Origin: Psilocybe cubensis
Lineage: Eukaryota
Direction: 5' to 3'
Length of the DNA: 64,000 bases
Assembly (NCBI GenBank): GCA_017499595.2
Contig: CM038999.1
Coordinates: 248,001-312,000, forward strand
The notes beneath the pieces were generated by a model. It was not told the origin of the DNA and ran no database searches. It saw only the letters and a program-made list of their open reading frames with translations. A program made the translations under genes and the position numbers. This document shows, in pieces, positions 3,841-61,374 of this stretch. Numbering within the stretch: position 1 is the first letter of the stretch; each line of letters starts with the position of its first letter.

Positions 3841-3927
3841 TGACCCCCACCCGAGTTGAACGGATGACCTTGTGGAACTTCCATTCAATGGCTGGAATCA
3901 CACGCTCTACCACTGAGCTAGGGGGTC
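3841..3927 (-). tRNA. tRNA-Trp(CCA) with a ~15-nt intron
   Basis: Reverse complement folds as GACCCCC TA GCTC AGTGGTA GAGC G TGTGA TTCCAG [intron CCATTGAATGGAAGT] T CCACA AGGTC ATCCG TTCAACT CGGGT GGGGGTC A, followed by a T-rich terminator. Confidence 0.93.
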
Positions 3928-18655: not shown

Positions 18656-19411
18656 CGCGGTTAGTGATTTACAGCGCGCGTCCCGCCTAGAAGATTGGAA
18701 TCCTTTATAAGAATCTGAAAACCATTTATCGATAAGAATTAGGCGCCTAATCATCGTGCGACAAGAGCATGAGAGACATACACTCAGTTTAAGTTCACAA
18801 ATAACCGAGCCTCTTCGCAACTATCGACATATCAGCGTAATAGTAGCCTAAGGTTAAGCACTGTATTAAACTTACATCAGTTCAAAGATCGATTCAGATA
18901 AAATTGGTGTTCTGAGGCGGGACTCTAGATGATGAATTGAACAAGATCGTGGGCATGATAAGGATAGAACCAACAAGCGCTTGCTGACCCTCAAAGGCGG
19001 TGCTAGAACCGTCTCTGTGGACCGGCGGGCCGGAGGAAGCTCAGTGGGGATCAAAGGGAGACGTAAACTGTAACGGGGGATCATGTTGTGATCATAGACC
19101 GTCATAGACCATCGGGCATCAGAACCCGCAAAGACTACAAGTACAGATAATTAACGAAGGTACACGTATTGTATAGTGGCACTTAATAAATCATTTTGCA
19201 AGCGAAGCTTCTATCTGTAATACAATGGAAGAATCTGGAACATTTCCCGAAAGCCAATTGCCAAGTTAATTGCTATATAATGCGTAGGGATGTGGTGGCT
19301 GATGAGGGAATTAGAAAGCTAAAGAGATGATATAATGAAAAATCTTTTATGATAGTGACTCTGACCTTGCGCTCCCCAATGGAATGCTAACACCCATATA
19401 CGAAAACTTGC

Positions 19412-19498
19412 ATTTTTTTGGTGTTTATCCTGTACTCGATCGGATACTCTACGTACACATTGGTTACACTACTGCCTGCAACCTCGGTCAGGAAAACG
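19412..19498 (-). ncRNA. Conserved structured 3' element, copy after tyrosinase 1 (putative cis-acting RNA)
   Basis: Aligns with the copies at 23135, 27640, 41612 and 61289; carries a compensatory P3 stem GGUUGCA/UGUAACC. Confidence 0.6.
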
Positions 19499-19653
19499 TG
19501 ATTGGGAAATCTGATTGAACGGTAAAGATAGCGGGTTTTCTTTTGTAGACTTGGTCGGATGAGGCAATGAAATCAAAAGAATGATATGATACACAAGCTT
19601 ATGCACAAATAGTTTCGAAACTTTGTGCTTTTGATGTTTTTGCGATTATTCCC

Positions 19654-21608
19654 CTATTCGAGTTCACTACCTCCAACACGTCCACGAGTGATCTCAGGAT
19701 ATATCTTTGGATGTCCCTCGACAGGGTAATGTGCGCCGTCGGTGAGGGTGAGAGGCATGCATATCACAGTCACCTTGAGTGAAGAGAACTTATGAATGTC
19801 GGCGACTTCTCCGTTTGCCTAGATAGTTTGATTATGATCAATACTCCAAGATATTGAGCAGCAGTTACACCCACCTTTACGACCGCCCAGCTAATGTGCT
19901 CCTTCAAATAAGGAATAACGACGGCCGGGTCAAGGGTTGCCTTCTTCGATCTTTCCAAATACTTTTTATTAATATGTATGAATCCCTTGATTGTTTCATC
20001 AGCGTGAGCGCTACAGTTGGCACACTCCTCGGGGTGTGGATTGGCAAAAACATCGAAGGTACCGGCAAAGGTTGGGTGGAACAGCCATTCCGCTTGATTG
20101 GAAGGCACTTCGTTGGACATGAAAACATAAACGGAGAAACTCCCTCCGATTTCGTACTCTTTGCATTCCACACGTACGCTCCATTCGAGATTGGTGCCCA
20201 TGGAAGCTGCACCTAAAATGGAGAGGTTAGGGGAGATTGATGGTATGCGACGGTATACTAACTTTGTTCGTCCACTGCAGCACCTTCACCGGATTCGGAT
20301 TGGACATTAACAATCCCACCATAGCTATAGTTAAATACACCGCTATTGTCGATGATTTCTGGAGATTTCCAGTAGGCGGTCTGAGTTCTCCGGAACGGCA
20401 ATAGATCTGAATGAAAATTATTAATGAAAATATCTCTCCAAGTTTCACAACTTACCATCTGTGTTTGCGGTCCAGACGCGATGTCTGCTGTACCAGAGGT
20501 CGATAACACGATCAACTTGCGCGTGATGCAGATAAAATATTGGATCAAAGGCTGTATTGACCTAATATCAGCGTTGGACTCAATATACAAGTGTTTGAAA
20601 TCATGTACCAGCTACTGGAACAAACGCCATGTTGCCATTTTGTCCTCCTGTTTGGACATGGATTGTGTCATGGATACCCTCTAATCCAGTTGTTCCGGCG
20701 CTTCCAAGTGTAAAGGCATCCCAAGTTGTGATGGACATGAGCCTTTGCGTATTGTTTACAATCTGTGGACCCACAGCCTCAAGGGCGCTATTGTATACAA
20801 TGAGATTAGCCATGGTAAAATATCTTGCAAAGCATAAAAGGAACTGAACGCACGCTCGAAGCAAAGCTGGCTGGCTGTTACCCGAAGCATCTGGATGACG
20901 TGTAGTACGTGGCCAGATATTGAAAGGTGGACTAAACACGGAATTTGCACCCGCAGGATATGCGTATGTCAAGAATGGGTTCGGAACAGACACAGGTGTT
21001 GGACTGTGTGCCTTGACAATGTTAACAGTAGGCGACGTCGTGACCTGAAGCGGCGGAACAACTGTCGCAATGTTATCCCATCCCCAATAGGGCTGACGCA
21101 ATGCTGCCGCTGCCTCTTCCCAAGCTGGACGATCGTGAGTGTATGCGGCCGCAATCTCGCGTGCAATTTTCTGTACTTCTTGCTGTAAATATTATTTGAA
21201 TCAGCTGAGAACGCATGTGTTATCAAAAAAGAGATTACCTCAAAAAGAACGATGTATGGTCGATGCCAAGTCGGGAACAGAGGTGTACGGTGAACACAGT
21301 AGCCACGGCCACCACTAGGAGTGCCGTTCCAATCGACATATGGTTGGCCGTGAATTCCACCGATTTGCCAATGGGATACCACATCTGTTCTGACTCGATC
21401 ATAGTATATTTCTGTTATAACAGCAAAGTTAAACTCATCATCAATCGAAATATCTGTCTTATTAATTAAAATGCTTACGAAGTGCTTGCACATATAACGA
21501 AAATTGGCGAACATCATTCACAAATGTCGCGATTTCGCGACGCGAATGGACAAGCTGGCCTGGCTGTGGCCTGGGCTGAGAACCGTCAACAACGACTCGT
21601 TGGGCCAT
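19654..21608 (-). CDS. Tyrosinase / polyphenol oxidase paralog 1 (8 exons)
   Basis: CuA GIHG...[17 protein letters not shown]; Cu[10 protein letters not shown]...[15 protein letters not shown]; YxY motif FNYSY; C-terminal shielding domain with CANC. Confidence 0.95.
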
Positions 21609-21696
21609 GGGAATAGCAGTGCAGATGGCAGATGGTATTGGGTCGACTGTCAGTTGTGAAAAGCGGACCTCAATGAATCCTTAAGGTATGCATTCT

Positions 21697-23134: not shown

Positions 23135-23221
23135 ATTTTTTTGGTGTTTATCCTGTAACCGATCGGATACTCTACGTATACATTGGTAGCCGTACTAGTG
23201 GATACCTCGACCAGGAAAACA
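23135..23221 (-). ncRNA. Conserved structured 3' element, copy after tyrosinase 2
   Basis: Sense sequence UGUUUUCCUGGUCGAGGUAUCCACUAGUACGGCUACCAAUGUAUACGUAGAGUAUCCGAUCGGUUACAGGAUAAACACCAAAAAAAU. Confidence 0.6.
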
Positions 23222-23399: not shown

Positions 23400-25372
23400 T
23401 TAATTCTCCTGGTCATCACGATGTCCACCAACACGTCCACGAGTAATTTCAGGATAGACCTTTGGGCGACCCTCCGTAGGGTACTTCGCACCGTCTGAGA
23501 AGGTGAGAGGCGTGCATATGACAGTCACGTTAAGCGTTGTGAACTTTTTTATGTCCGCGACTTCGCCGTTGGCCTAGATATGCGGTTTAAAAGCGAAGAA
23601 GGATCATTTGAAACCATGGAAGCGTACCTTTATCACTCCCCAGCTGATGTGCTCCTTCAAATATGGAATGACAACCTCCGGATCAAGAGTTTTCTTCTTC
23701 GACCTTTCCAAATACTTCTTATTTATATGGATGAACCCCTTAATTGTTTGATCAGCATGAGCGGTACAGTTGGCACACTTTTCGGGGTTGGGGTTGGCGA
23801 AAACGTCGAAAGTACCGGCAAAGCTGGGATGGAATAGCCACTCCGTGTGGTTGGAGGGCACTTCCTTGGACATAAAAACATATAAAGAGAAGCTCCCTCC
23901 AACTTCGTACTTCTCGCATTCAACACGGACGCTCCATTCAAGCTCTGTAGTGCTGGAGGCTTCACCTGAAATGGAGAGGTTACGGGGTGAGTGTGTCTGT
24001 AGTAGGATACTAACTTTGGTAGTCTGCTACACCGGCTTCACTGGATTCGGACTGGACAGCGTTAGGAATCCCAAGATAGACGTAGTTGAACACGGTGTTG
24101 GTTTGGATGATCTCAGGAGATTTCCAGTATTCGGTTTGAGTTCTCCGGAACGGCAATAAATCTGAATGCATATAAACAAAGGATATATCAATCCATATTC
24201 CTCAACTTACCAGCTGCATTTGGGGTCCAGACGCGATGTCTGCTGTACCAGAGTGCAATAACACGATCAACTTGTGCATGGTGCAGATAGAAAATCGGAT
24301 CAAAAGCTATATTAACCTGATATCAGTACATGGACTCGATATGCGAATGTTCCAAGCAACCTACAGGCTACAGGGATGAACGTCATATTTCCATTTGGCC
24401 CGCCCGTGTGGTTATGGATTGTGTCGTGAATACTCTCCAATCCACTTGTTGTTCCGTCCCCCAATGCAAATGCATCCCAGGTGGTGATCGACATGAGCCT
24501 TTGCGTATTGTTCACAATCTGTGGACCCAGAGCCTGAAGTGCGCTATTTAATTGTATAGAATATAATCAACCTTGAGGACTACGTTGCAAAGCAGAGTAA
24601 AAGTGAACGCACGCTTGAAGTTTGGCAGGCTGGCTGATACCTAAACCATCCGGATAGCGTGCAGTACGCGGCCACGCATTGAACGGGGCCCCAAACACCG
24701 CATTCGCTCCAGCTGGATATGTATATGTCAAGAACGGGTTGGGGACCAATACTTCCGCTGGACTGTCGGGTTTGACGATGCTGACCATAGGAGCGGAGAT
24801 CACCTCCGGAGGCGGGACTACTGTAGCGATCTGGTCCCATCCCCAGTATGGCTGACGCAAGAATGCAGCTTCGATATTCCAGCGATCGGTGTCGTGTGTG
24901 TATGTCGCAGCAATCCTGCGTGCAATCCTCTGTACCTCTTGCTGATGTTATCCAAGTTAGCACTGGAGAAGATATTCGTGAAAAGGAGAGAGATATACTT
25001 CGAAGAGAACAATATATGGTCGATGCCATGTCGGGAACAGAGGTGTACCGTGAACACAAAATCCCCTGTCGGTCGGTGACCTCGGAACATTGAGTGTACC
25101 GTTCCACTCGACATATGGTTCTCCATGAATTCCAGAAATTTGCCAGTAGGACACAACATCATTTGCTGGTTTATCGTATATTTCCTCTGTGTTGGACTCG
25201 TTAGAATACATTCACTGCTATATCACATCAAAAAATGCCTACGAAGTGCTTGAACATAAAGCGAGAACTGGTAAATATCCTTCACTAATGCGGAGATTTC
25301 CCGACGTGGAGGAACAACCTGGCCCAACCCTGCCTTGGGAAGGGTGCCTTCAACGACAACTCGATTGGCCAT
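23400..25372 (-). CDS. Tyrosinase / polyphenol oxidase paralog 2
   Basis: GIHG...[27 protein letters not shown]...[19 protein letters not shown] motif; intron positions match the paralogs. Confidence 0.95.
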
Positions 25373-26738
25373 GGGAGTAATAATACAACAAACTGCGGTA
25401 AATGTTGGGTAGATTGCCAGGTGCAAAGAAGGATTTGCGGTGAATTCACAACGTGTGCATTCTTGTCTTTTAAGCTGAACTGGCGGGCACTAAGGCTTCT
25501 CGTAAAGACTGAAATAAGACGATGGATGCAACATGTGCTCGCAACAGGTTGGCAGGCATGATTATTCGTAAAGTTTTTTTTAAAAAATTGTTGTTAGCTC
25601 CACGCGTATAGAGACGTTATGGGTATACTCTATACACAATGATACTATTATCTTCAGCACAGATTATGTGGAGAAAGTCACAAGTTCGATGCGGCCGCTC
25701 AGCGCTCAGCCACAAAGCAGAGAACTAAGCACCAAACCTAATTTCTTGAGAAAATACAGCTAATTCTACTCACTGCATGATCTGCTTCGAGTACATTGCG
25801 GAGAAGATGTCGCGTTTGCATGCAAAAACAGCAAGGAGTACAGTATGTCGATGTAGTTCAAATTTGTTCATCTCCTGCGGAATCTTTGGGGTAAAGACCA
25901 AGGTTGAACGCGTACAGGAACGACCTAATTGTGCATACCATACCATTTTAAACGGGTGTACTGAATCACCTGTCCACAACCTCAGCCACCAAGAATGAAC
26001 TTGTACGCATTCTCGCACGGACCCGTCGGATTATCGTCAACGGATACTTCGTCATTCTATTTTTGTCTGGACCTCCGTTGATTGAAGAAAAGCTTTTCCC
26101 ACGCTGCACCGGCACTCGTACTGATTAAGCAAAAAACTTTGTTCTCTGCGCATGAGTATTCCTTTTCTTTTTCTGGATCGGAGAGTAGCCAGTCCAGTCA
26201 ATGTGCCCAGCCTCCAGGTCACGACAGAAAGAGATCTAGAGTTGGAAAATATCCGTCGACAAGAATACGATAGCCTCCGTTATGAATGCCAACAAAGCCG
26301 GGACGGTCACGGTACGCACAGGGTGCAAATCAGAAACTTCACGAGTAGCAAGTTATTCCTATCCTAGTAAGTAGTTCGCACTACACTTTCTTCACGTACC
26401 AGTAGGCTTTAACTCCATATCAGGTTCCGCAAGAGACGCGCAAACCAAAAAAAAACTTTGAATCCCATTCACACAATAAACCTCTCCTCTGTGACATACG
26501 TCCTCCCGCAATGTACTCAAAGCAGCTCATCGTAATAACACAATAAACAAAAGGTTCACACATCAAAGGCTCTTGAAGTGTGGTGTGGCGGCACATAACG
26601 GCATGGCCAACCGACCTTCGGCATAATATTTGTACATGTTTTGACAAATGACAAACAAATAAGATCTGCACACACAGTGCCAAATCTCAACACAAACACA
26701 AACACAAACACAAGTCGGCCAAAACACAAGCCCAGCCC

Positions 26739-27584
26739 TAGGCTCGTACACCAGTCGTTTCTGACTCAGCATATTTCGAGCTCCGCTCGGTTTCGTCAGA
26801 AACGGCTGGGCCAAACGGTTCGGTTTTGGCCGAGTCACGCTTTGTCACGTCGGACTTGTTGAAATTCGAACAACTACGTCGATTGCGACCACTACCCGTC
26901 CCCCTCCCCCTCAAATTCTGAATCCTCTGAATCCTCAATAACATCGTACTCCTCCTCTATTTCCTCAAGATCCATGTCAAGGTGAAACCCTGCATGCTAG
27001 ACTCGCCCATACTGTCTGAAGCTGAAGCATGATTTGAATCTACAGAGGATGTAGAGACTGCATTTGGGACAATCTGGGTATCCAGAGGTTCACTTTTGAT
27101 GGAGGTGGGATGTGCAGGTATGTCTCTTTCATTGTCTGTTTCATCTGCAGAGACTGGGTTCATTAACCGCCCGGACCTGCCATCTAATCTTAGACGCAGT
27201 TCACCTGCGCCATGATATATGATTTTTCGGCTCAAATTACAAGTCATTTTTTTCTCAAAAAATTTTTTTTTCGTGACCTTGTAAAAATGAATTTTATTGT
27301 AAAAGAAACCTATCTAAATGATTCTGTAGACAACTTTTTTTTTAAGTTGTGGAAGGTTGTTGTTGAGGCAAATCGCGTTTTTTTCACTAAGTCCGAGTCA
27401 CAAAACGAGGATTCCCTCAAATCCGAACCGTTTGTCCCAGGCCTTCTGTGAATCTCTCTCTTTTCGCACTCCGATCAATGTTTGACGACATAAATAAAGA
27501 CAACATTTGTACAAACATATCACTCGGTACCTGCCTTATCTAGAAAAGAGACGAGATTCACAGAAGGCCTGGCTCGCGAGGCTA
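26739..27584. mobile_element. 846-bp non-autonomous DNA transposon with a 9-bp TSD (Mutator-like) and imperfect TIRs containing hairpins
   Basis: GCCCAGCCC is directly repeated at 26730-26738 and 27585-27593. Ends are TAGGCTCG... / ...CGAGGCTA. Inverted blocks CAAACGGTTCGG / CCGAACCGTTTG. No transposase ORF. Confidence 0.75.
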
Positions 27585-27639
27585 GCCCAGCCCCAGTGGT
27601 ATCTTACTAGATCTACTCATACCGGGAAGGACCAATCAG

Positions 27640-27708
27640 TTCCATAACCGAATGGATTCTCTAGGCATACATTGGTAGCTATACAAAGGCATACCTCGAC
27701 CATGAAAG
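27640..27708 (-). ncRNA. Degenerate copy of the conserved 3' element after tyrosinase 3
   Basis: Keeps GGUCGAGGUA..UACCAAUGUAU..UAGAG..UCGGUUA but has lost the outer stem and A-tract. Confidence 0.45.
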
Positions 27709-27858
27709 GATTCTGGTTATTATGGAAATGGATGTTTGGCAGGTGAGTGATCTACAAAGATGGGCGGCGGAATTTTTTGGATAAACTTAATGGAAGTAAA
27801 AAAGGAAAGGAAAGATACACATGCTTATGCATGCGCTGATGATTGATTCCTCTAGGCT

Positions 27859-41460: not shown

Positions 41461-41611
41461 GGAAATTTTATCACAACACATCAAGCACTAACAACATTGA
41501 CCCTGATTGCGCGTACGTTGGTGTATCGTATCTTTGCAATGATTTTCTGCCTCCTATCCAATTATATACAAAAAACATAACCATCCATCTATCATTTAAA
41601 CAAGAACAAAA

Positions 41612-41697
41612 TGTTTTCCTGGTCGAGGTATCCACTAGTAGGGCTGCCAATGTATATGTAGAGTATCGATCGGTTACAGGATAAACGCCAAAAAAAT
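41612..41697 (+). ncRNA. Conserved structured 3' element, copy after tyrosinase 4
   Basis: About 5 differences from the tyrosinase-2 copy over ~87 nt; same orientation relative to its gene. Confidence 0.6.
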
Positions 41698-42408
41698 ATA
41701 CCGTCATCGCTTTCTTTGTTTCCCCCTCGCAAATTTGACCGTTCCACTAGTGAGCGCCACGGTGATAAGTATGTTTATAAGATATTGGCTTGAAAACAAA
41801 AAATTTATTTCATTCGCTGCATGAGCTTCTTCGAGTACATGAACATAAATTCGAACACGATCGCTAACATCTATTTCTTTTTCCTATCCCCCTTTCCCTT
41901 TCTCCCCATTTTCTAATTGGACCGTCTCCTCGGGTATGCGCACCATACCTCTCGCTCGCTAACACGCACAAACACTCGCACGCATGCCCTAGTATATTCT
42001 GAGGAGTGACAACAACGAAGCTCAATTGCTCAACGGGCGTACCTTGGATGTACGTCTTTCATTGCAGCAAGTCCTATATTTGAAAACTCACGCGCTTTGA
42101 CGTGCCAAATTCATCCCTACTTGTACGTTCGGCTAAGTCCGGCATGCGGCTTGTTCTCACGAGGCAGGCCCCGGGAGGCCTATGGGCTTATCCGCAATTT
42201 TACTGATTTTGGCCCCCAAATCCGCGAAACCGGATAGACCTTCTCGGGGAAATTTCCGAAACGTGAACAAGTCAGCGTAACTCAACCCTGTTATGGCGCC
42301 AGAAACGTCCAATGTACTAAACCATATCTACTTGAGCATCAAAATCTAGTCTTCAAAGGACCCGGGAAGCTCCCCTAGAGGTCTGTCCGCTGTTTTGCCC
42401 GATTTTGG

Positions 42409-42727
42409 TGTTGAGCAGCATAATGTGCCCAAAACTACTCTACACAGTCTATGTACGCAGTGGCTAAGGACTTGACTTAATACTTACCCTTTGGGTCGTG
42501 TTACTTGAGTTGTAGCTACTCGAGTGGGTTGTGAAAACCGCTTGTCATTAGAGGGCGTTAGCGTCGCCCTTATATACACCTAGAGTGCGTTACATGTGAC
42601 TAGTGACAGTAACTACTGTATAGTACTTAGTCATCTATCTACTTAGTAATCTATTCACATGACTTATCATATGACTCTGAGAGTCACACGGTCGAATGTG
42701 AACTTTATTAATAATAGTCGTTCAACA
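42409..42727 (-). repeat. 3' LTR of the copia element
   Basis: Identical by eye to 48328-48646; preceded by the polypurine tract. Confidence 0.97.
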
Positions 42728-42786
42728 CTCCCCCTCAAGTGGTGCGCGCGCCATAAGGCGGGACTCTACTTGTTTTCATGAACGGA

Positions 42787-45700
42787 CTAATCTAGCGGGT
42801 AAAACTCAAGGCCTAGAGCAGATCTATGTTTCAAGAATAGGTCAGGACCTAGATTCTTGGTAAACATGTCGGCAACGTTATCAGCAGTCGGAACTGCATA
42901 TAACTTGAGTGTGCCTTGCTCTATTTGTTCCCGTATGTAATGATAGCGAATCTCCACATGCTTAATCCCTTTTTGTGTCACAGGATTCTGCGCATTGAAT
43001 ATTGCACCATGTGAGTCCGCATAGACTGGGACGTGGAAAATTGGTTTGGCCAGTTCCGCAAATAGATTTTTAATCCATGCGCAATCTTTGGCGCAGTCGG
43101 AGAGTGCCATGTATTCACTCATAGTAGACGACGTTGAGACTAACTTCTGTGTCTGTGATTTCCACATGACCGCGGCATTTGCCAAGCTAAAGAAGTAGCC
43201 TTGTGCAGACCGACGCTTAAGGTCGAGCTCTGATTGGTCATCTCCATAAGAGGCGTCACAATAGGCATATAGGCCAGCGCGAGACTTCCCATCATAAACT
43301 AAGGCATATTTGCATGTGCCAACAAGATACCGCATAATATATTTAGCCTTGTTCATGTGGTCTTCAGATGGATTGGAAGCAAACTTTGCCATCTGAGTCA
43401 CTGCATATGCAATGTCAGGTCTAGTTCCAAGCATTAGGTAAAGCAAGGAACCAATCACTGATTGGTACTGCGAGCGAAGTTGTGCCGAACTAGTACCATC
43501 GAACGGCATTGGGCGATAGCCCGTGGGTAAGGGAGTTCTAGCAGCTTTAGCATCGCTCATGCCAAACCGGGTTAGAACCTTCTCCAAATAGTTGGCTTGA
43601 CTTAAGAGGATTTTGCCATCTTTGTAATCAATAGCCATGCGGAGAAACTCCCGTGATTCTCCAAGATCCCGGCAATCCCACTTCTTCATGAAGAGATCTC
43701 TCTTCTGTCGTGAGAGTTCGGAGTTAGGTCCGGTGATCTGGATGTCGTCGACATAGGCAAACATTATTGCTAACGTGCCGTCGGTATGACGTGAGATGAA
43801 GATGCCGGCGTCCGAGTATAGTCTGGTGAATCCAAGCTCTTTTAGACTTCTGTCTAGCTCAAACCACCATGCTCGTGCGGCTTGTTTGAGCCCATAAATT
43901 GCCTTTTTAAGCCGGAGTACTTTCTTCTCCTGTCCCTTTAGAACAAAGCCCTCAGGTTGTTCCATATATATCTCCTCGTCTAACGGCCCATAAAGGAAGG
44001 CCGATATGACGTCAAGGGACCAGACTTTCCACCCTTCGAGTGCGGCAAGGGCAAATATTGTGCGAACACTTGGTAGCATGACTACGGGTGAGAATAACTC
44101 ATCGTAATCTAGGCCTTCTATCTGTAAGAAGCCTTTGGCTACCAGACGAGCCTTTTTTCGACCATCAGTTTTGATGTCGTAGACCCATCTGCATTTGATG
44201 GCTTTTCGGCCATTAGGGAGATCGACAAGCTCATAGACCTCTCTTTTGACGAGGACCTCTAACTCGTCTTTCATGGCTTGTCTCCATTCCTTCTGTTGGT
44301 CAGCTGGTAATTTCAGCAAATCACGCAGGGTCCAGTCACGGACATCCTTTGTGAGACCATAATCAGCAGCGCAGATAATTTCGCAGACCCGTTTGGAAAG
44401 TAATGTCGCGAAAAGACTGTTTGCTACTCCCCCTTCCGTCCCTGAATTAGGGATACCAGATTCAACATTGCGATTGCTACTAGATCGAGTAAGTGGCACG
44501 TAATCAGGGACGGATGCCACTCCGTGTGAAACAGTCTGCAGCTTCTTACGTCGATCTTTATCGGTTGTTGTTCCGGGTCGGTAAACATTGCCTTCCCGCT
44601 CTGGTACTTTCCGAGTTCTATCCGACCTTCTGGGCGGAGGCTTGACAGGTGTATCAGGCATTTTTGGTCTTTGACCTGACGTGGGAGGTGTTACGTATCC
44701 CTGATCGTCGTCATCCTGATCATCGTCATCGTCACGAGGAGGACGTGAACTAGGCCCTGGCATAGAACTTGGAGGACTGGCGGACCGTGGGCTCGGTTGA
44801 TCGCCTGTCTCTTTCGGCAGAGGTGGCATTGGAAAGTCGTCGTTATCGGAATCGGTCGACTCACTTCCATAGCCGATTTCAAAGGAGGGTCCCTTTGGTT
44901 TTGGAGGATTAAAGCGTGTGTTGGGTGGAATCTTCCTCTTAGATTCACACTTTGGGAATAAGGTTTCATCGAATAGGGCCTTGTTCGCACGAAAGACCAC
45001 ATTATTCGGAGATCTCATAAAGATCATCACCGAATTAGATTCGTAGCCGAGGAATGTCATCAACTCGGAACGCGGTGATAACTTATTTTTACGCTGCTCC
45101 TTGTGTAGGTACACATAAGCTGCGCATCCCAAAGTTTTAATTTTAGACACATCAGGTAACTCCCCCTTAAGGGCCTGATGGGGTGTCTTCCACTCAATGC
45201 GTTTTACCGGAGTCCTATTGTATAGGAAGACAGCGTGGGCACAGCAAAATTGCCACCAGCTATCCGGTAGACAGGCGTAATGCCTCATCGCTTCAGACTT
45301 TTCCATAATTGTCCTGTTTAGTCTTTCAGCTCAACCATTGCTCTGATGAGCATAGGGAGCTGTAAAGCAGGCACGTGTACCGGCATTTTGTAGCCGTTCC
45401 AAAAACTCGGTACTAACGAATTCTCCGCCATTATCAAAGAAGTATTCTTTGACGGAGGTACCGTACTGTTTTTCCACCATTTTCTCGAAAGAATTCACAG
45501 CCGCAGCGGCATCACTCTTCTTTTTAAGAAAGTAGAGCCATACGTGTGGGGTGTGGTCGTCCAAAAAGGACATGAAGTATTTACACTTCTGGTAGGAATA
45601 AACAGAAAATGTCTTGAGATCACAATGAATACGATCAAAAGGCTTCTTCGCGCGTTTGGGGTTTTCGTCATATGACTTATCAGTCATTTTACCCTTCGCG

Positions 45701-48075
45701 CAGCCTTCACAGACATTTTTGTCCTTGGGTACACTTATTTTGGGAAAGTTCTTAGTGGAGTCCCTAAAATGTCTTAGAACATCGTCAGAGGGATGACCAA
45801 GGCGTCGATGCCAAAGGTCACTTGACTCTTGAAGAGTCGAAGATAACGTGCTAATGTCTTCTCCAGAGACAATGCGCGTATGCACCCAATACATTGGATG
45901 TCTGTTCGATTCAATTGAATCTGCCCTGGCTTGCAGGCCATATGATTTTTTAGGCAAATCAAAGAACCGAAGGACTTTAGCTGTTCCTTCTATGGTCATG
46001 CCGGACGACAGGAGTTGTCCCATCGACATTAATCGAACATGTAATTGTTCCATGTATAGAACAGGATGGAGTCGGCGGACTTCATGTCCCAGATCCTCGG
46101 AGTGTGAAACCACTTCTACGAAGACTGTTCCAAAACCGGTGATAGGCACTGTGGTAGTGGCAGTTTGTGAAATAGGTCGATTATTCTCAGCAAAGTCTTG
46201 GTAACTTGCGAAATCAGACTTATTGCCAGTAAAGTGCACACTAGCACCACTGTCCATTAACCAAGCCGTTATGGCTTCTTTCCCCTTTTTGGGTTTTTCA
46301 GTTCCTTTTCCTTTGCAATCTGGACAACACGCGAAATGAGATAGATATTTTTGGTATACATCATGTACAAATGAGTAGTAAATATCTACAGGGAACTCCT
46401 CCTCCTCCGGCCGGTCGACTGTTGAGTCGTTGTCGTCTCTAGATGGGGTAGTCCCTGTGGGAATCTCAGTGTTATTTATAGTCCAATTGCTAGAACTAGA
46501 ACTTACTTGCCTGTCAACGAAATGGTCATCGTAGTAACCATCATAGAGATCCTCATCGTCTTCTCCGTAATCCACACGTTCCTCAATAGGAACATCAGGA
46601 GACTGTTCTCTCTGATCATCAAAGTTTGGGATATCACCCCATTGCTTTGGTTCCGGTCCAAATAGCTCATTATTAAGCTTTTCGATCTCCGGAGATGTGA
46701 TCTCACCATCAACGACCATGTGATCGTCAATAGTTTCAGAGTTGGCGGGCGGAGTCTTCAACCTTTCTGCGAGGGAGACATCCGAAGGAATTTGTAAGCT
46801 GTTCGTGGCAACGCTTTCCATGATCTGGAGTGCCTGTGATGTAGGCTTTACACCAATTCTGGAAGCTAGGCTGCGTGCGGCAGCAGGAGCCGGGTATGGC
46901 GCCATGCGTGTGTCCGGATTTCTCCAGGGCCCAGCCGGAGCAGAGGTACGGGAGGAGATACTTCCTCTACCGTTGATCTCGATGATCCTTGACGTGGTGG
47001 GAGCTGGAATTGCCGGTTCGAGAACCGTCAATGTTGATGCCATAAAGACATCATCCGCTAAGGCTGTATTGCCTTGTGCATGCTGCTTGCCTTTGCCTCG
47101 TGGGGCACGCTTACGAATTCTCTTCTCCTGATTATCACCCTGAGACTGTCCCTGATTAGGGGTCTTCGAAGGATGATAGTGAGGGTGTTCCCCTTTTGGT
47201 CGGATCGCAGTATTGCGTTCAGCCGACTGTTGCGGTGCCCGGGAAGGGCCGGTCTTTGGTGCAGGCTTAGGGTCATATGTCGTACCCTTTTTAGGCTTTT
47301 GCCTGTCATCCAGATTACCAAACCGCGCTCCCCAACGATTGCGGATATCAGCGGAGATAGCCTCCAGCTTCATGTCATCAATCTTGGTCTTGTCTCCATA
47401 ATCATTAATAAGGTCTTGATATATGGAGGGCGGTTGATTGGGCGATACCGCAAGGGGTAAACGTGAGAATAAGATGAGACATGCCATGGTCTCGGATACT
47501 AGATCCGCATTTTCGACCTTTTTGACATGCTCGTAGATGGCTCTAAAACGGGCCAGCTGAGGGGTAGGATCCGAAAGATCAAATTTGAAGGTGGTCAGAC
47601 GTTTGAAGTCCTCCATCACTTCAACAAATTGAACTTTATCGTATTTTGCTTTCAGATCATCCCATGCCCCCTTCGCGGTCTTTCCCTTGACTGTTTCCCA
47701 AATAGATGGGATCAAGGAATTCGCGATGACACCTAGTGCCTTGGAATTCTGCTCCTTAAAGTCTTTCATCGCTTTTTCAAACGACGAAGATCTTTACGAC
47801 CAGCGTTGGAATTGGATTTTCCACAGCTCAATTTGAGCTGCGTTAACAGTTGTTGCCGGAGCAACGGGGGATGGGAATGCAGGCTCTCCTTCAATTGGAG
47901 AAGGGGCCACGACATCTCCAGAAATAACCCCATCAACGCCAGTCAGGAGGAATATGGGAAGCATTTTGTCAGCCCATTTACGATAGTTAGAACCATCGAA
48001 TTTGGGGAATTCGGAAACAGATACGGTTGCTTTGGAAGACATTCTTAGTGCGCTTAAAGTTTGAGCCTGTGACAA
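42787..48075 (-). pseudogene. Copia gag-pol polyprotein in one reading frame, interrupted by two nonsense codons
   Basis: FDGSNYRKW (gag), WLMDSGAS (protease), LWHRRLGHP..CEGC, HCDL..DNGGEF..NG*AER (integrase), KARLVAKG..YVDD (RT), ADMFTK (RNase H). Stops at 47794-47796 and 45331-45333. Confidence 0.92.
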
Positions 48076-48327
48076 GAATAAGTCAGCAAGGCTTTTCTCA
48101 CATCCTGAACTTAAAATAGAAGGAAACAGTTGGGCTGGTCAGGCCCGATCAATCTCAAGATCAGATCTAAGATCCAATCGAGATTAAGATCTTTTGCACA
48201 CTCATCTAGATCGCCAAAAATAGGCGTTATCTTTCAGAGCAGCATGGGGCAAGTATTGTCCCTAGGCCAGTGCCGTCGACAGCAAGGCTAACAAGCCTGC
48301 GTCGTTATGGCTACGGGGCCCATAACC

Positions 48328-48646
48328 TGTTGAGCAGCATAATGTGCCCAAAACTACTCTACACAGTCTATGTACGCAGTGGCTAAGGACTTGACTTAAT
48401 ACTTACCCTTTGGGTCGTGTTACTTGAGTTGTAGCTACTCGAGTGGGTTGTGAAAACCGCTTGTCATTAGAGGGCGTTAGCGTCGCCCTTATATACACCT
48501 AGAGTGCGTTACATGTGACTAGTGACAGTAACTACTGTATAGTACTTAGTCATCTATCTACTTAGTAATCTATTCACATGACTTATCATATGACTCTGAG
48601 AGTCACACGGTCGAATGTGAACTTTATTAATAATAGTCGTTCAACA
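48328..48646 (-). repeat. 5' LTR of the copia element
   Basis: Followed on the minus strand by the PBS GGTTATGGGCCC. Confidence 0.97.
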
Positions 48647-54777: not shown

Positions 54778-57700
54778 ATGGGGAATGATGAAGCCATGAA
54801 ATTCCTTCAAGGTGAGTGCAGCAGTAGACTCTACTGACACTCCGCGTTACTAATGAGTTGTGAACTATACCTCAAGGAGGGCTGTTCAATGGTTCCAACT
54901 TCCAGAACTTCAAGGATGCCATGTTTATTGCATCTCAGGGCAATGTACAGGTATCAACCACGGATACAGATGCTACTGCAGGTTATAATCACCTTCTTTC
55001 GATCCATTTCCGCCTCATTGATGTCTTATTCGTACAGTAATCCGTAAACTTGCTGATTGGTTGACTCCCCTCAACTTCAGGGCAATCCACCGTGATGCTC
55101 TCTCCAAGAGCATCCATGGAACTGGCGAATGGTTGATCAAGAGCTCACAATTCAGCCTCTGGGTTGAACATCCGAATAGCTCATTGTGGATAGAGGGAAT
55201 ACGTGTGTGGCTCCTGGATCTATCTCTGCCTGTCGATACACTTATGCTTGTATTTAACAGCTGGCGCTGGAAAAACAGTTCTCATGTAAGAATCTACTTT
55301 CCACATAGCTACAGCTAACTTGTCGGTGTTTTGTAGGTCCATCGTCATTGACTACCTCGAGCATCAACTCTGTAGTGATAATGAAACTGTCGTATATATA
55401 TACTGCAGACACGACGACGAGCGCTCCATAACTGAGCTTCTAGCATCTCTGGTGAAGCAACTTATAGAAAATACGGACATGAATTCTCCTGTTTTTGCTC
55501 TGGTGCACGATATCTATGTCACGCACAAGAAGAGGGCAACTCTTCCGAACAAACATGAGTTCCTAGCTCTGTTGCACAAAGCATTTACCTTGTTCAACAA
55601 AGTCTACATTGTTCTGGACGCATTAGACGAAGCTCCAAATATCCACCAAGATCTTATTTCTACTCTGGCTGGTCTTCCTGCTTCCTTTCTCTTCTCATCA
55701 CGGCCAATGCAGCTGATCGATTTACCTAAAGACACTATCATTGTGTCGATTGGGGATCACAATCAGGACGATATCGAAGTATTCGTTCAGTCTAAGCTTC
55801 GGGAAAACTCGCATATCTCACGCGTTCTGCGGGGTCACGAAGAACATGTAGATGATATATGCACAAAAATCCATAAAACATCTGATGGAATGTACGTATT
55901 TTAGTACTTTGTTGTCGTTAATGAACAATTGTGTATCTGATGGTTGTTCCAGGTTTCTTCTCGCTGCTCTTCAAATCGAATCGCTTCGAGGATGTGGCAC
56001 CTTTAAAAAATTATCAAAAGCCCTTGATCTTCTGCCAGCTGACTTAGACTCCACATATCGCTCCGCGCTGTCAAGAATCGACAACCAGGAAGGCGACTTT
56101 CCTATCCTCGCGAAACGAGCCATTACTTGGCTTATCTACGCCCATAGACCCCTCACGGCGGCAGAGCTGATGGTCGCACTGGCAATAGAGGATATTGACA
56201 TGCCGTTTGACCACGACAACATCCCTCCACAAGATCTCATTGTCGCTGTATCGTGTGGGGTGATCGAAATTCAACAGGGCAGTGGGGTTATCCGCCTCGT
56301 CCGTAAGTCCAGATATGCTGTTAGACTGTGTACAAGACCGTCAGAAATTGACGAATTACAGACTACACAGCATATGACTTCTTCAGAAAACATGCAGAAA
56401 GCCTTGTTCCTTCGCCACATGCATACATCTCTACGAGCTGCATTATCTACCTGACCGCTCTGGGATTTACCAAAGGAAAAATCTCAACAATAACACAGTT
56501 TTGGAACTTTGTGCGACAAGGTCGGTTGATCGACTATGCATATCGCAACTGGATTTTTCACGCCCGTCAATGTGGGGATGAATCCTTTCCATTGGAAGCA
56601 GTCTCTAAATTTGTGCTGGAAACTGCTAGATATCCTGTTTTGTACAACGATTGGGATATGGAATTGTTCAAACCTTGCCATGTGGTTGCGTACTATGGCC
56701 TTCCAATTCCATTGCCATGGAACGATTTCTGTCGTTCGCGTACCTCCGACTATCATACTCCTCTCACTCTAGCTGCCACGAATGGTGTCGATACTATTGT
56801 CAACTCACTTCTTTTGTGTCCGGATATTGATATTAATGCGCAGACTCATTCTGGGGAAACTGCACTCATGCTCGCCTCTGCGAACGGCCATCATTCTATT
56901 GTTTTGGCTCTCCTGGCTTGTGACAATATCGCCGTTAATCTATCCAACAAACTAGGCTATACAGCACTCATCCAAGCTATTAGGAATGGCCACCATGCGA
57001 CTGTCGATTGTCTCCTTGCTTGGAAAGGCATCAATATCAACGGGCAAGTTGGGAATGCGATGACTCCGCTGATGTACGCATGTATGGGTGACGAGCAAGA
57101 TATTGCAATCAAACTTCTCTCGTTCGACGGTATTGACGTTAACGTGCGTGATGGGCGCGGGGACACAGTAATTTCATGCGCCATACAACGTGGTCACCAA
57201 TCTATCATTGACACAGTGCTATCGCTTCCTGGTATTGACGTGAATCCAACAAATTTACGAGGGGACACGCCTCTTATAATTGCATCTGAAAGGGGCAATA
57301 TTGCGGTTGTCAAAAGGTTTATCTCTTTGCGGCATATCAATATAAATCACCAGAATGTCTATGGCCATACAGCACTCATGCAAGCAGCATCTCAAAATCA
57401 TAATGCCATAGTTACAACCCTCCTTTCTTCTCTAGAAATCGACGTTAATCTGAAGGATTATAGTGGACGTACGGCACTTATGCATGCAACTCAGTTTGGT
57501 CGTTGCAGCGCCGTTGCTGCTTTGCTGTGTAATAGGCATGTTGATGCCAACGTTCAAACTCAGGAAGGATATACGGCGCTTATGCTTGCTTCTGGAAGCT
57601 CCGAGCAGAACATCAGTACTGTGAAACAACTGCTGTGCTTCGAAGGCATTGACGTCAATCTACGTAGCATCTACGGAGAAACAGCTCTTATGCGTGCCTC

Positions 57701-58421
57701 GTCTAGAGGTCACACGGAGATAGTGGGTTTACTTCTTTCGTTCCCAGGAATCAGGATCGATATGGAAGATAAACGTGGACGAACAGCCCTGTTTCTGGCA
57801 TGCCAATACGGCCATAGAGCCGTCGTGGACTCTTTGCTACAATTTTCAAAGCGACATAACATCACCATCGGCAAATTGAAAACCATTGACGGTGCAACAC
57901 CACTTTCCCTTGCATGTAAGGATGGGCATTCAGATTCAGGCATTATGAAACTATTGGACATTTTGCCTTGCCTCCGAGACATAGATATTAATCTGGATTA
58001 TTCCGAAGGAGAAACAGCCCTCATGCACATGTGTAAGCATGGGTATGAAAATACTGTCAAGGTCCTCTTGTCACACCCCAGTGTTGCCGTCAATCTACAA
58101 AACAGCAATGGGGAAACTGCGCTGATGCTTGCCTGCAGAAAAGGACGAATTGGTATTGTAACAGCCCTCCTCTCTGTTCCAGGCATCGATGTGAACTTGA
58201 AAAATAACCATGGCAGTACAGCGCTCATGTACGCCTCTTGGTATGGCGCAAATGAGGTTGTTGATGCTTTACTATCGTTGCCGGCGATTGATACTAATGC
58301 ATGCAATAACTTTGGAGATACTGCACTTTCTTACGCTATAACATATAACCATAAGATTGTTGTTGATGCCATCCAGAAACATACTTCAGACGACAATTGT
58401 AGCCCAAAGAAGGATACCTAA
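54778..58421 (+). CDS. Fungal NLR-like NACHT NTPase with C-terminal ankyrin repeats and only a ~46-aa N-terminus
   Basis: WLTPLNFRAIH..GTGEWL, P-loop GIP|GAGKT, Walker B VYIVLDALDE, GMFLLAALQI, and about 15 G.TALM.A...GH..VV..LL ankyrin repeats. Confidence 0.9.
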
Positions 58422-61288: not shown

Positions 61289-61374
61289 ATTTTTTTGGTG
61301 TTTATCCTATATCCGATCGTATATTCTACATATACATCGGTAATCCTTCTACGGATACCTCGGCCAGGAAAACA
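61289..61374 (-). ncRNA. Conserved structured 3' element, copy after tyrosinase 5
   Basis: Only ~55 nt after the stop codon; compensatory P4 GUAUAU-GUAGA-AUAUAC and P2 CCGA/UCGG. Confidence 0.6.

Follow-up and report, generated by a model that had tools for sequence, protein, structure and literature searches.

Five neighbouring tyrosinase genes of Psilocybe cubensis are each followed by an ~87-nt block, a distinct unit that is linked to these genes and held under selective constraint, and we place roughly even confidence in the view that this block is a conserved 3′-terminal module of the tyrosinase mRNAs, acting in 3′-end formation or stability. The window analysed here, i.e. the whole stretch of 64,000 nt, covers positions 248,001 to 312,000 of contig CM038999.1 (GenBank assembly GCA_017499595.2) and has a G+C content of 45.7%. 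Real, constrained and gene-family-specific as a 3′ element, the block is a good candidate for a structured RNA and probably functions at the RNA level, whilst the three-way-junction fold modelled for it is plausible, as a reasonable hypothesis and not a finding. Melanin formation and browning in mushrooms depend on tyrosinases, and the joint control of the multi-gene tyrosinase family is poorly understood. A shared, constrained 3′-terminal RNA module would suggest that the family is controlled jointly after transcription, and would provide a testable 87-nt block with defined helices.

A constrained block downstream of five tyrosinase genes

Exactly five tyrosinase loci were identified in the window using Pfam (PF00264 and PF18132) and tblastn with the tyr1 protein; tyr4 alone is encoded on the plus strand and the other four on the minus strand. 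Of the solved relatives, Agaricus bisporus PPO4 comes out best, with modest similarity. Seven intron positions are common to all five genes, with introns of ~50-70 nt and GT (once GC)..AG ends, and the genes therefore arose by DNA-level duplication of gene and flank. Taken with the modest similarity to PPO4, introns of this length are indicative of a mushroom-forming species distinct from A. bisporus. The element was found downstream, in gene sense, at 5/5 tyrosinase loci. The five positions originally assigned to it were all borne out, including the degenerate state of the tyr3 copy, first placed at 27640-27708, and the measured spacers agree with the 55-180 nt after the stop codon, in gene sense, that had been claimed:

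23135-23221, minus strand: element copy after tyr2, used as the reference (stop codon 23400-23402, spacer 178 nt; 117.9 bits)
19412-19498, minus strand: element copy after tyr1 (stop codon 19654-19656, spacer 155 nt; 104.7 bits)
41612-41697, plus strand: element copy after tyr4 (stop codon 41458-41460, spacer 151 nt; 109.5 bits)
61289-61374, minus strand: element copy after tyr5 (stop codon 61431-61433, spacer 56 nt; 106.6 bits)
27636-27714, minus strand: degenerate element copy after tyr3 (stop codon 27859-27861, spacer ~150 nt; 54.2 bits)

The common orientation and similar distance of the copies were inherited from one ancestral duplication of gene plus flank and are thus not five independent observations, all copies coming from one genome and one common ancestor. 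The bit scores are those of a covariance model built from the five copies, as the original prediction had proposed, and run on the 64 kb on both strands with filters off. This model recovered all five copies, the intact ones at 104.7-117.9 bits, and gave 14 matches at E ≤ 10 in the window, comprising these five, one match at E 0.011 and eight at E ≥ 1. No further copy was found on either strand of the 64 kb above 20.7 bits, the score of the match at E 0.011 (19627-19735, minus strand), which spans the junction between the tyr1 coding region and its 3′UTR and was treated as chance. Searching with a 26-nt core pattern, allowing up to three mismatches, gave three matches vs 0.00 expected from 100 shuffles. 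Beyond the window, a metagenome scan using a degenerate element pattern fitting all five copies returned 0 stretches, and a scan using the alignment of the five Tyrosinase_C exons returned 164 pattern matches, 0 of them confirmed by tblastn.

Conservation was measured in windows along the five gene regions, aligned with MAFFT, as the mean pairwise identity among the four intact copies. Identity reached 0.77 and 0.88 in the element, vs 0.17-0.34 in the spacer, 0.19-0.33 downstream and 0.41-0.84 in coding windows, and for the six pairs of intact copies it ranged over the element from 0.78 to 0.94, with the tyr1 copy the most divergent of the four. In the best conserved coding exon, fourfold-degenerate sites showed an identity of 0.50-0.67 (10 pairs, 23-33 sites each), whilst codon positions 1 and 2 of the same exon, at 0.78-0.93, were at about the level of the element. 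The block is under constraint since its identity exceeds that of the spacer, the downstream sequence and the fourfold-degenerate sites. Its boundaries are identical across the four intact copies, with unalignable flanks on either side, and the spacers do differ in both sequence and length (56-178 nt), as had been claimed. With flank identity at only 0.17-0.34, the flanks are not conserved equally to the element, so that broad recent gene conversion is unlikely. Two DNA runs from close strains or species (X5 and X6) are ~99% identical over tyr1 and therefore add no useful variation.

Several other features lie in the neighbourhood of these genes. At 42409-48646 on the minus strand, ~700 nt downstream of the tyr4 element, there is a complete LTR retrotransposon of the Copia type, encoding gag, integrase and RVT_2 domains; given the 100% identity between its two 319-bp LTRs, it appears to have inserted very recently. 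A dispersed repeat of ~850 bp with internal inverted repeats and many loose ends at its borders (26739-27585) separates the 3′ flank of tyr3 from the region upstream of tyr2 and starts, at 27585, about 50 nt past the degenerate copy of the element. At 56352-58421 on the plus strand there is a long open frame consisting nearly entirely of ankyrin repeats (Ank_2, 357 bits).

Poly(A)-signal-like words and transcription of tyr1

A point absent from the original prediction is that the block carries words resembling a poly(A) signal. In 4/4 intact copies a UA-rich word, UGUAUA(C/U)GUA, is followed by GAUAAA and then by CC with an A-run, in this order and within about 45 nt. The UA-rich word stands ~40 nt before the A-run and GAUAAA 4-10 nt before it, and the coordinates of the last two words in the reference copy are:

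23147-23152, minus strand: GAUAAA, one letter off AAUAAA, at element positions 70-75 within the 3′ strand of helix P1; identical in 4/4 intact copies
23136-23144, minus strand: CC followed by exactly seven A, candidate cleavage/polyadenylation point, at element positions 78-86; identical in 4/4 intact copies

The block ends 143-265 nt after the stop codon, within ordinary Agaricomycete 3′UTR lengths as given in the available part of a study of Coprinopsis cinerea, where the median 3′UTR length is 141 nt and the mean about 208 nt (PMC12230235). In yeast, according to the accessible portion of a second source, the poly(A) signal comprises, in this order, UA repeats to which Hrp1 binds, an A-rich element resembling AAUAAN and a cleavage site preceding an adenosine, with U-rich flanks; ordinary fungal poly(A) signals are degenerate (PMC12667328). 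A poly(A)-signal reading by itself does not account for the near-identity of 87 nt, and the extra conservation beyond such degenerate signals would imply an additional reader.

In the mechanism that we propose, the block would form the last ~87 nt of a 3′UTR of ~145-265 nt, with the mRNA ending at the candidate cleavage/polyadenylation point, CC then A7. The 3′-end signals would be embedded in a compact fold, in which a closing helix, P1-P2, branches into P3 and P4, and the module would be read by a sequence- and shape-specific RNA-binding factor or by the 3′-end machinery itself. All paralogues would then share one mode of 3′-end formation and/or mRNA stability, and this shared mode would provide coordinated post-transcriptional control of the tyrosinase family. 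We infer each of the component steps, namely presence of the element in the mature mRNA, cleavage at the A-run, formation of the fold and protein binding.

The degenerate tyr3 copy keeps the 5′ two-thirds of the element, whilst the 3′ third, with GAUAAA and CC+A7, is gone, and its identity to the intact copies is 0.51-0.65. Although this 3′ third has been lost, tyr3 has canonical splice sites at all seven introns, so that a functional tyr3 would mean that at least one paralogue can do without the element.

Evidence of transcription came from assembled contigs of run X10, for which, as for X14, the RNA type is only guessed, with X5 and X6 serving as DNA runs. One X10 contig matches tyr1:

19574-21644, minus strand: tyr1 transcript in X10, one contig of 1671 nt with seven GT..AG introns removed

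The splice joints of this contig are absent from the DNA runs X5 and X6, and tyr1 is therefore transcribed and spliced. The contig ends at 19574, 80 nt past the stop codon and 76 nt before the element, with no tail or loose end there among the pieces listed; none of the listed X10 pieces covers the element, which is neutral as to its transcription. The X10 depth in the bin 19385-19768, which holds the element, is 186.1, of which the listed tyr1 contig supplies only about 83, so that by arithmetic at least one further X10 contig lies in this bin, its exact place not being listed. The same arithmetic reproduces the other X10 bins exactly and leaves no further contig in 19001-19384. At tyr2, a short X10 contig with a depth of 466 touches the gene only by pieces of 20 and 30 nt (23446-23465 and 23914-23943), and its joint is also present in the DNA runs X5 and X6; this contig probably represents another related locus outside the stretch to which the contigs were aligned, possibly a further paralogue.

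The candidate fold and its statistical support

RNAalifold returned a three-way junction of 25 pairs as the consensus, with P1 (containing a bulge) and P2 followed by the hairpins P3 and P4, and with junction linkers of 0, 3 and 2 nt. In the reference copy the main parts of this predicted fold are:

23212-23220, minus strand: 5′ strand of P1, element positions 2-10, pairing with 23146-23155 over a one-base bulge
23185-23206, minus strand: hairpin P3, element positions 16-37, with a variable loop
23164-23182, minus strand: hairpin P4, element positions 40-58, with UGUAUAC, a UA-rich stretch and the GUAGA loop at 23171-23175

The three-way fold that had been claimed was thus returned as a consensus, but it is the minimum-energy fold in only 2/4 intact copies. 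P1 is present in the minimum-energy fold of 4/4 intact copies when these are folded at 86-87 nt and of 3/4 when flanks are included. In the tyr4 copy with flanks (41605-41704, plus strand) the minimum-energy fold pairs the 5′ U-run with the 3′ A-run and P1 is not formed, and the modelling makes possible an alternative outer helix that uses the A-run or a poly(A) tail. As judged by reading, the degenerate tyr3 copy retains the capacity to form P1, P3 and P4, albeit in shifted registers.

Every substitution listed in the original prediction for P2, P3 and P4, including the tyr1 mismatch in P2, is present in the alignment, and the claimed invariance of the GUAGA loop holds in the four intact copies. 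The divergent tyr1 copy has compensatory changes in P3, where A-U is replaced by U-A and C-G by A-U, both strands having changed with pairing kept, and where by reading a U.C mismatch is replaced by G.U. In tyr4 a U-A pair of P3 becomes U-G, and the closing C-G pair of P4 becomes U-G in tyr4 and U-A in tyr5. P2 shows a change of U-G to C-G and, in tyr1, a C.A mismatch, and neither P1 nor P2 contains any double-sided change.

The share of pairing cells in the alignment was 92.7%, vs 28.9-46.0% when the partners were slid by 1-3 columns, and vs a mean of 90.5% in shuffled alignments, of which 27/500 matched the observed value. Double-sided changes occurred at 3/25 pairs, vs 1.4 ± 0.9 in shuffles, with 51/500 shuffles reaching three for these five sequences from one genome, and the covariation score was 0.212 vs 0.180 in shuffles, 48/500 of which reached it. 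Of the description of the element as covarying, the pair-keeping substitutions therefore stand, whilst statistical covariation is unsupported at five sequences, being matched by 51/500 shuffles. Folding energies relative to shuffles gave z values of -3.10 for both tyr1 and tyr5, -0.97 for tyr2 and +0.33 for tyr4; with flanks included the values were -0.26 for tyr2, +0.79 for tyr4, and -1.90 and -3.06 for the tyr1/tyr5 pair. The tyr2 and tyr4 copies therefore fold no better than shuffled sequence. Variable columns numbered 12/34 among unpaired and 12/50 among paired positions, i.e. unpaired columns are conserved about like paired ones, and structure alone is therefore insufficient to explain the constraint, which points to sequence-specific recognition as well. 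By strand, 98/100 cells pair in the sense orientation, 10 of them G.U cells, vs 90/100 in the antisense, an advantage that reflects six distinct G.U pair columns vs two A.C columns and is not significant.

These same measurements bear on whether the block might act at the DNA level, as a transcription-factor platform, an insulator or a polymerase pause/termination site, with the RNA fold incidental, which we regard as unlikely, if still deserving of attention. Loops and linkers as conserved as the stems, a covariation signal short of significance and two intact copies folding no better than shuffles would all fit such a role, as would the tandem arrangement tyr3-tyr2-tyr1, in which the element is at the same time located upstream of the tyrosinase gene that follows. 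Nevertheless, the changes in P3 and P4 keep pairing and the sense strand pairs better than the antisense; tyr4 and tyr5 keep the element despite having non-tyrosinase neighbours downstream (the Copia element and unrelated ORFs), and a contiguous footprint of 87 nt is long for a protein-binding DNA site.

A second alternative accepts an RNA product but places it outside the mature message, as a separate small RNA contained in, or released from, the 3′ flanks of the tyrosinase transcripts instead of a cis-acting part of the mRNA. We consider this improbable. The block is a compact, sharply bounded unit of ~87 nt, the listed spliced tyr1 contig stops before the element whilst the extra X10 depth falls in the same bin, and by reading an ACA triplet is present three bases before the A-run. 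Against this, all five copies are bound to tyrosinase genes, no consistent T-run terminator was seen by reading on either strand, and the copies match no Rfam family, snoRNAs and tRNA included, and receive no ARAGORN call.

These database searches were carried out at two levels. Across the whole window, Rfam 15 at the gathering threshold gave one match, a tRNA away from all the elements; when the four intact copies were scanned with permissive filters at E ≤ 10, there were 0, 2, 0 and 2 matches, all at E ≥ 1.4 and scoring 9.5-14.3 bits vs thresholds of 35-60. ARAGORN likewise called one tRNA gene in the window and none at the element copies. The tRNA, of 87 nt at 3841-3927 on the minus strand, scores 47.9 bits with Rfam and was given no named anticodon by ARAGORN, and is probably an intron-bearing eukaryotic tRNA. 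That the element had not been recognised as a hammerhead, HDV, twister, TPP riboswitch, SECIS or snRNA agrees with the Rfam scan, which gave no family at the copies, purine riboswitches, xrRNA and snoRNAs included. Considered as a whole, the initial reading of a cis-acting 3′UTR structure is upheld as regards a constrained, gene-tied element unmatched by any family, whilst the fold itself is unsupported by the covariation statistic.

Further candidate identities were considered and rejected. A tRNA or tRNA-like element, suggested by an 'A-CCA' read after P1, has neither an Rfam tRNA match at E ≤ 10 nor an ARAGORN call, and a single-hairpin H/ACA-like RNA, with the ACA three bases before the A-run, has no Rfam or ARAGORN support. 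A small peptide does not fit since, by reading, no AUG is present in tyr1 and the frame is disrupted on both strands by single-base indels in tyr4 and tyr5. ENE-type triple helices need two U-rich strands, of which only one is present here, with no support from Rfam, and an xrRNA likewise finds no support from Rfam. Pumilio (PUF) sites are of the type UGUA-N-AUA, the core of which is not invariant in the element, with tyr1 reading UGUG there; as a G.U pair in P4 (columns 49/61) is still possible with UGUG, the change speaks for structure rather than for a PUF word. In the literature, a 17-letter element string had no match in the text of the papers searched, and the titles and abstract openings of the top-ranked keyword matches held no description of a conserved tyrosinase 3′UTR element. 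A systematic screen for fungal RNA structures was made on Ascomycota genomes only and, in the part of the article available, tyrosinase is not mentioned (PMC8216456).

Origin of the block, significance and likeness to known systems

Similarity among the copies might also be kept by short-tract gene conversion among the paralogues, with the element having no function of its own, an explanation to which we assign very little weight. The tyr2 and tyr4 elements are 0.94 identical whilst their genes are only about 69% identical and their C-terminal domains 0.72 (protein), and the likeness of the elements does not track that of the coding sequences, tyr1 being closest to the others in coding DNA but having the most divergent element; both points speak for conversion. 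Conversion would nonetheless have to deliver the same boundaries in four intact copies with unalignable flanks, and it would be strange for tracts to begin and stop at the same ~87 nt in all pairs, some of which involve genes separated by 20-40 kb and lying on opposite strands. Moreover, the copies differ by 6-22%, and homogenisation is therefore not recent, and the differences in the stems mostly keep pairing.

Descent from a mobile-element relic beside the ancestral tyrosinase gene, whether a MITE with the P1 strands as terminal inverted repeats or a small A-tailed retroposon, is scarcely credible: the unit does have an inverted repeat of 10 bp at its ends and closes with an A-run, and the window holds other mobile DNA (the Copia element and the ~850-bp dispersed repeat), but the only copies in the window are the five linked to tyrosinase genes, no target-site duplication is seen by reading beside the P1 strands, a relic free of selection would have diverged as far as the spacer did, and a retrocopy or A-tailed retroposon is at odds with the seven introns kept by all five genes and with a family of five copies only. 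Contig depth, from X5 and X6 runs placed at 80% likeness and hence not a copy number but a rough guide that excludes only a high-copy family, is 74.7-104.9 (X5) and 12.5-22.2 (X6) in the element bins, vs about 1050-1130 and 176-191 in the dispersed-repeat bins (26681-27832), for which the comparison levels are ~75 and ~13. As to a dispersed repeat unrelated to tyrosinase genes, then, the window contains no unlinked copy and the two DNA runs, as a rough guide, show no pile-up.

A conserved 3′-terminal module of tyrosinase mRNAs, the reading that we prefer, would rank among very few candidate structured mRNA elements in Basidiomycota. Should the block be merely a conserved poly(A) signal or terminator, it would still be useful as a compact terminator for mushroom expression constructs. 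It is conceivable, though a long shot, that the element represents a new class of eukaryotic cis-regulatory structured RNA, a three-way-junction sensor or protein-docking module at the 3′ end of tyrosinase mRNAs that switches 3′-end formation or decay. If so, the signals for such a sensor module might be copper, a phenolic substrate, wounding or harvest, and the element would be an RNA regulon marker, much as the 3′ stem-loop is for histone mRNAs, or else the first riboswitch-like element in fungi outside the TPP class.

Compared with known systems, the element resembles a MITE in its small size and inverted-repeat ends, but unlike a MITE it is only gene-linked, has no whole-genome pile-up and no target-site duplication (by reading), and is constrained. 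TPP riboswitches can control 3′-end processing or splicing, and the element shares with them the character of a structured RNA in a eukaryotic mRNA, with a multi-helix junction of similar size. TPP is, in the consulted part of one source, the only eukaryotic riboswitch class, found in plant THIC 3′UTRs and fungal introns (PMC5882874). The element, however, is without an Rfam TPP match even at E ≤ 10, and its junction linkers would leave little room for a pocket. Yeast and fungal poly(A) signals have an architecture, as described in the available part of one source, whose order is that of UGUAUA(C/U)GUA, GAUAAA and CC+A7 in the element (PMC12667328), and these words stand at a typical 3′UTR distance from the stop codon (PMC12230235). 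Those signals are short, degenerate and unalignable between paralogues, whilst the element comprises 87 contiguous nt, is 78-94% identical and is apparently folded. The 3′ stem-loop of metazoan replication-dependent histone mRNAs is a family-wide element near the stop codon that is bound by a dedicated protein and governs 3′-end formation and stability. It differs from the element in consisting of one small hairpin, which takes the place of the poly(A) tail, the element being ~87 nt long, branched and followed by an A-run, but as a sequence-plus-structure element common to a multigene family it provides the closest functional analogy to the module proposed here.
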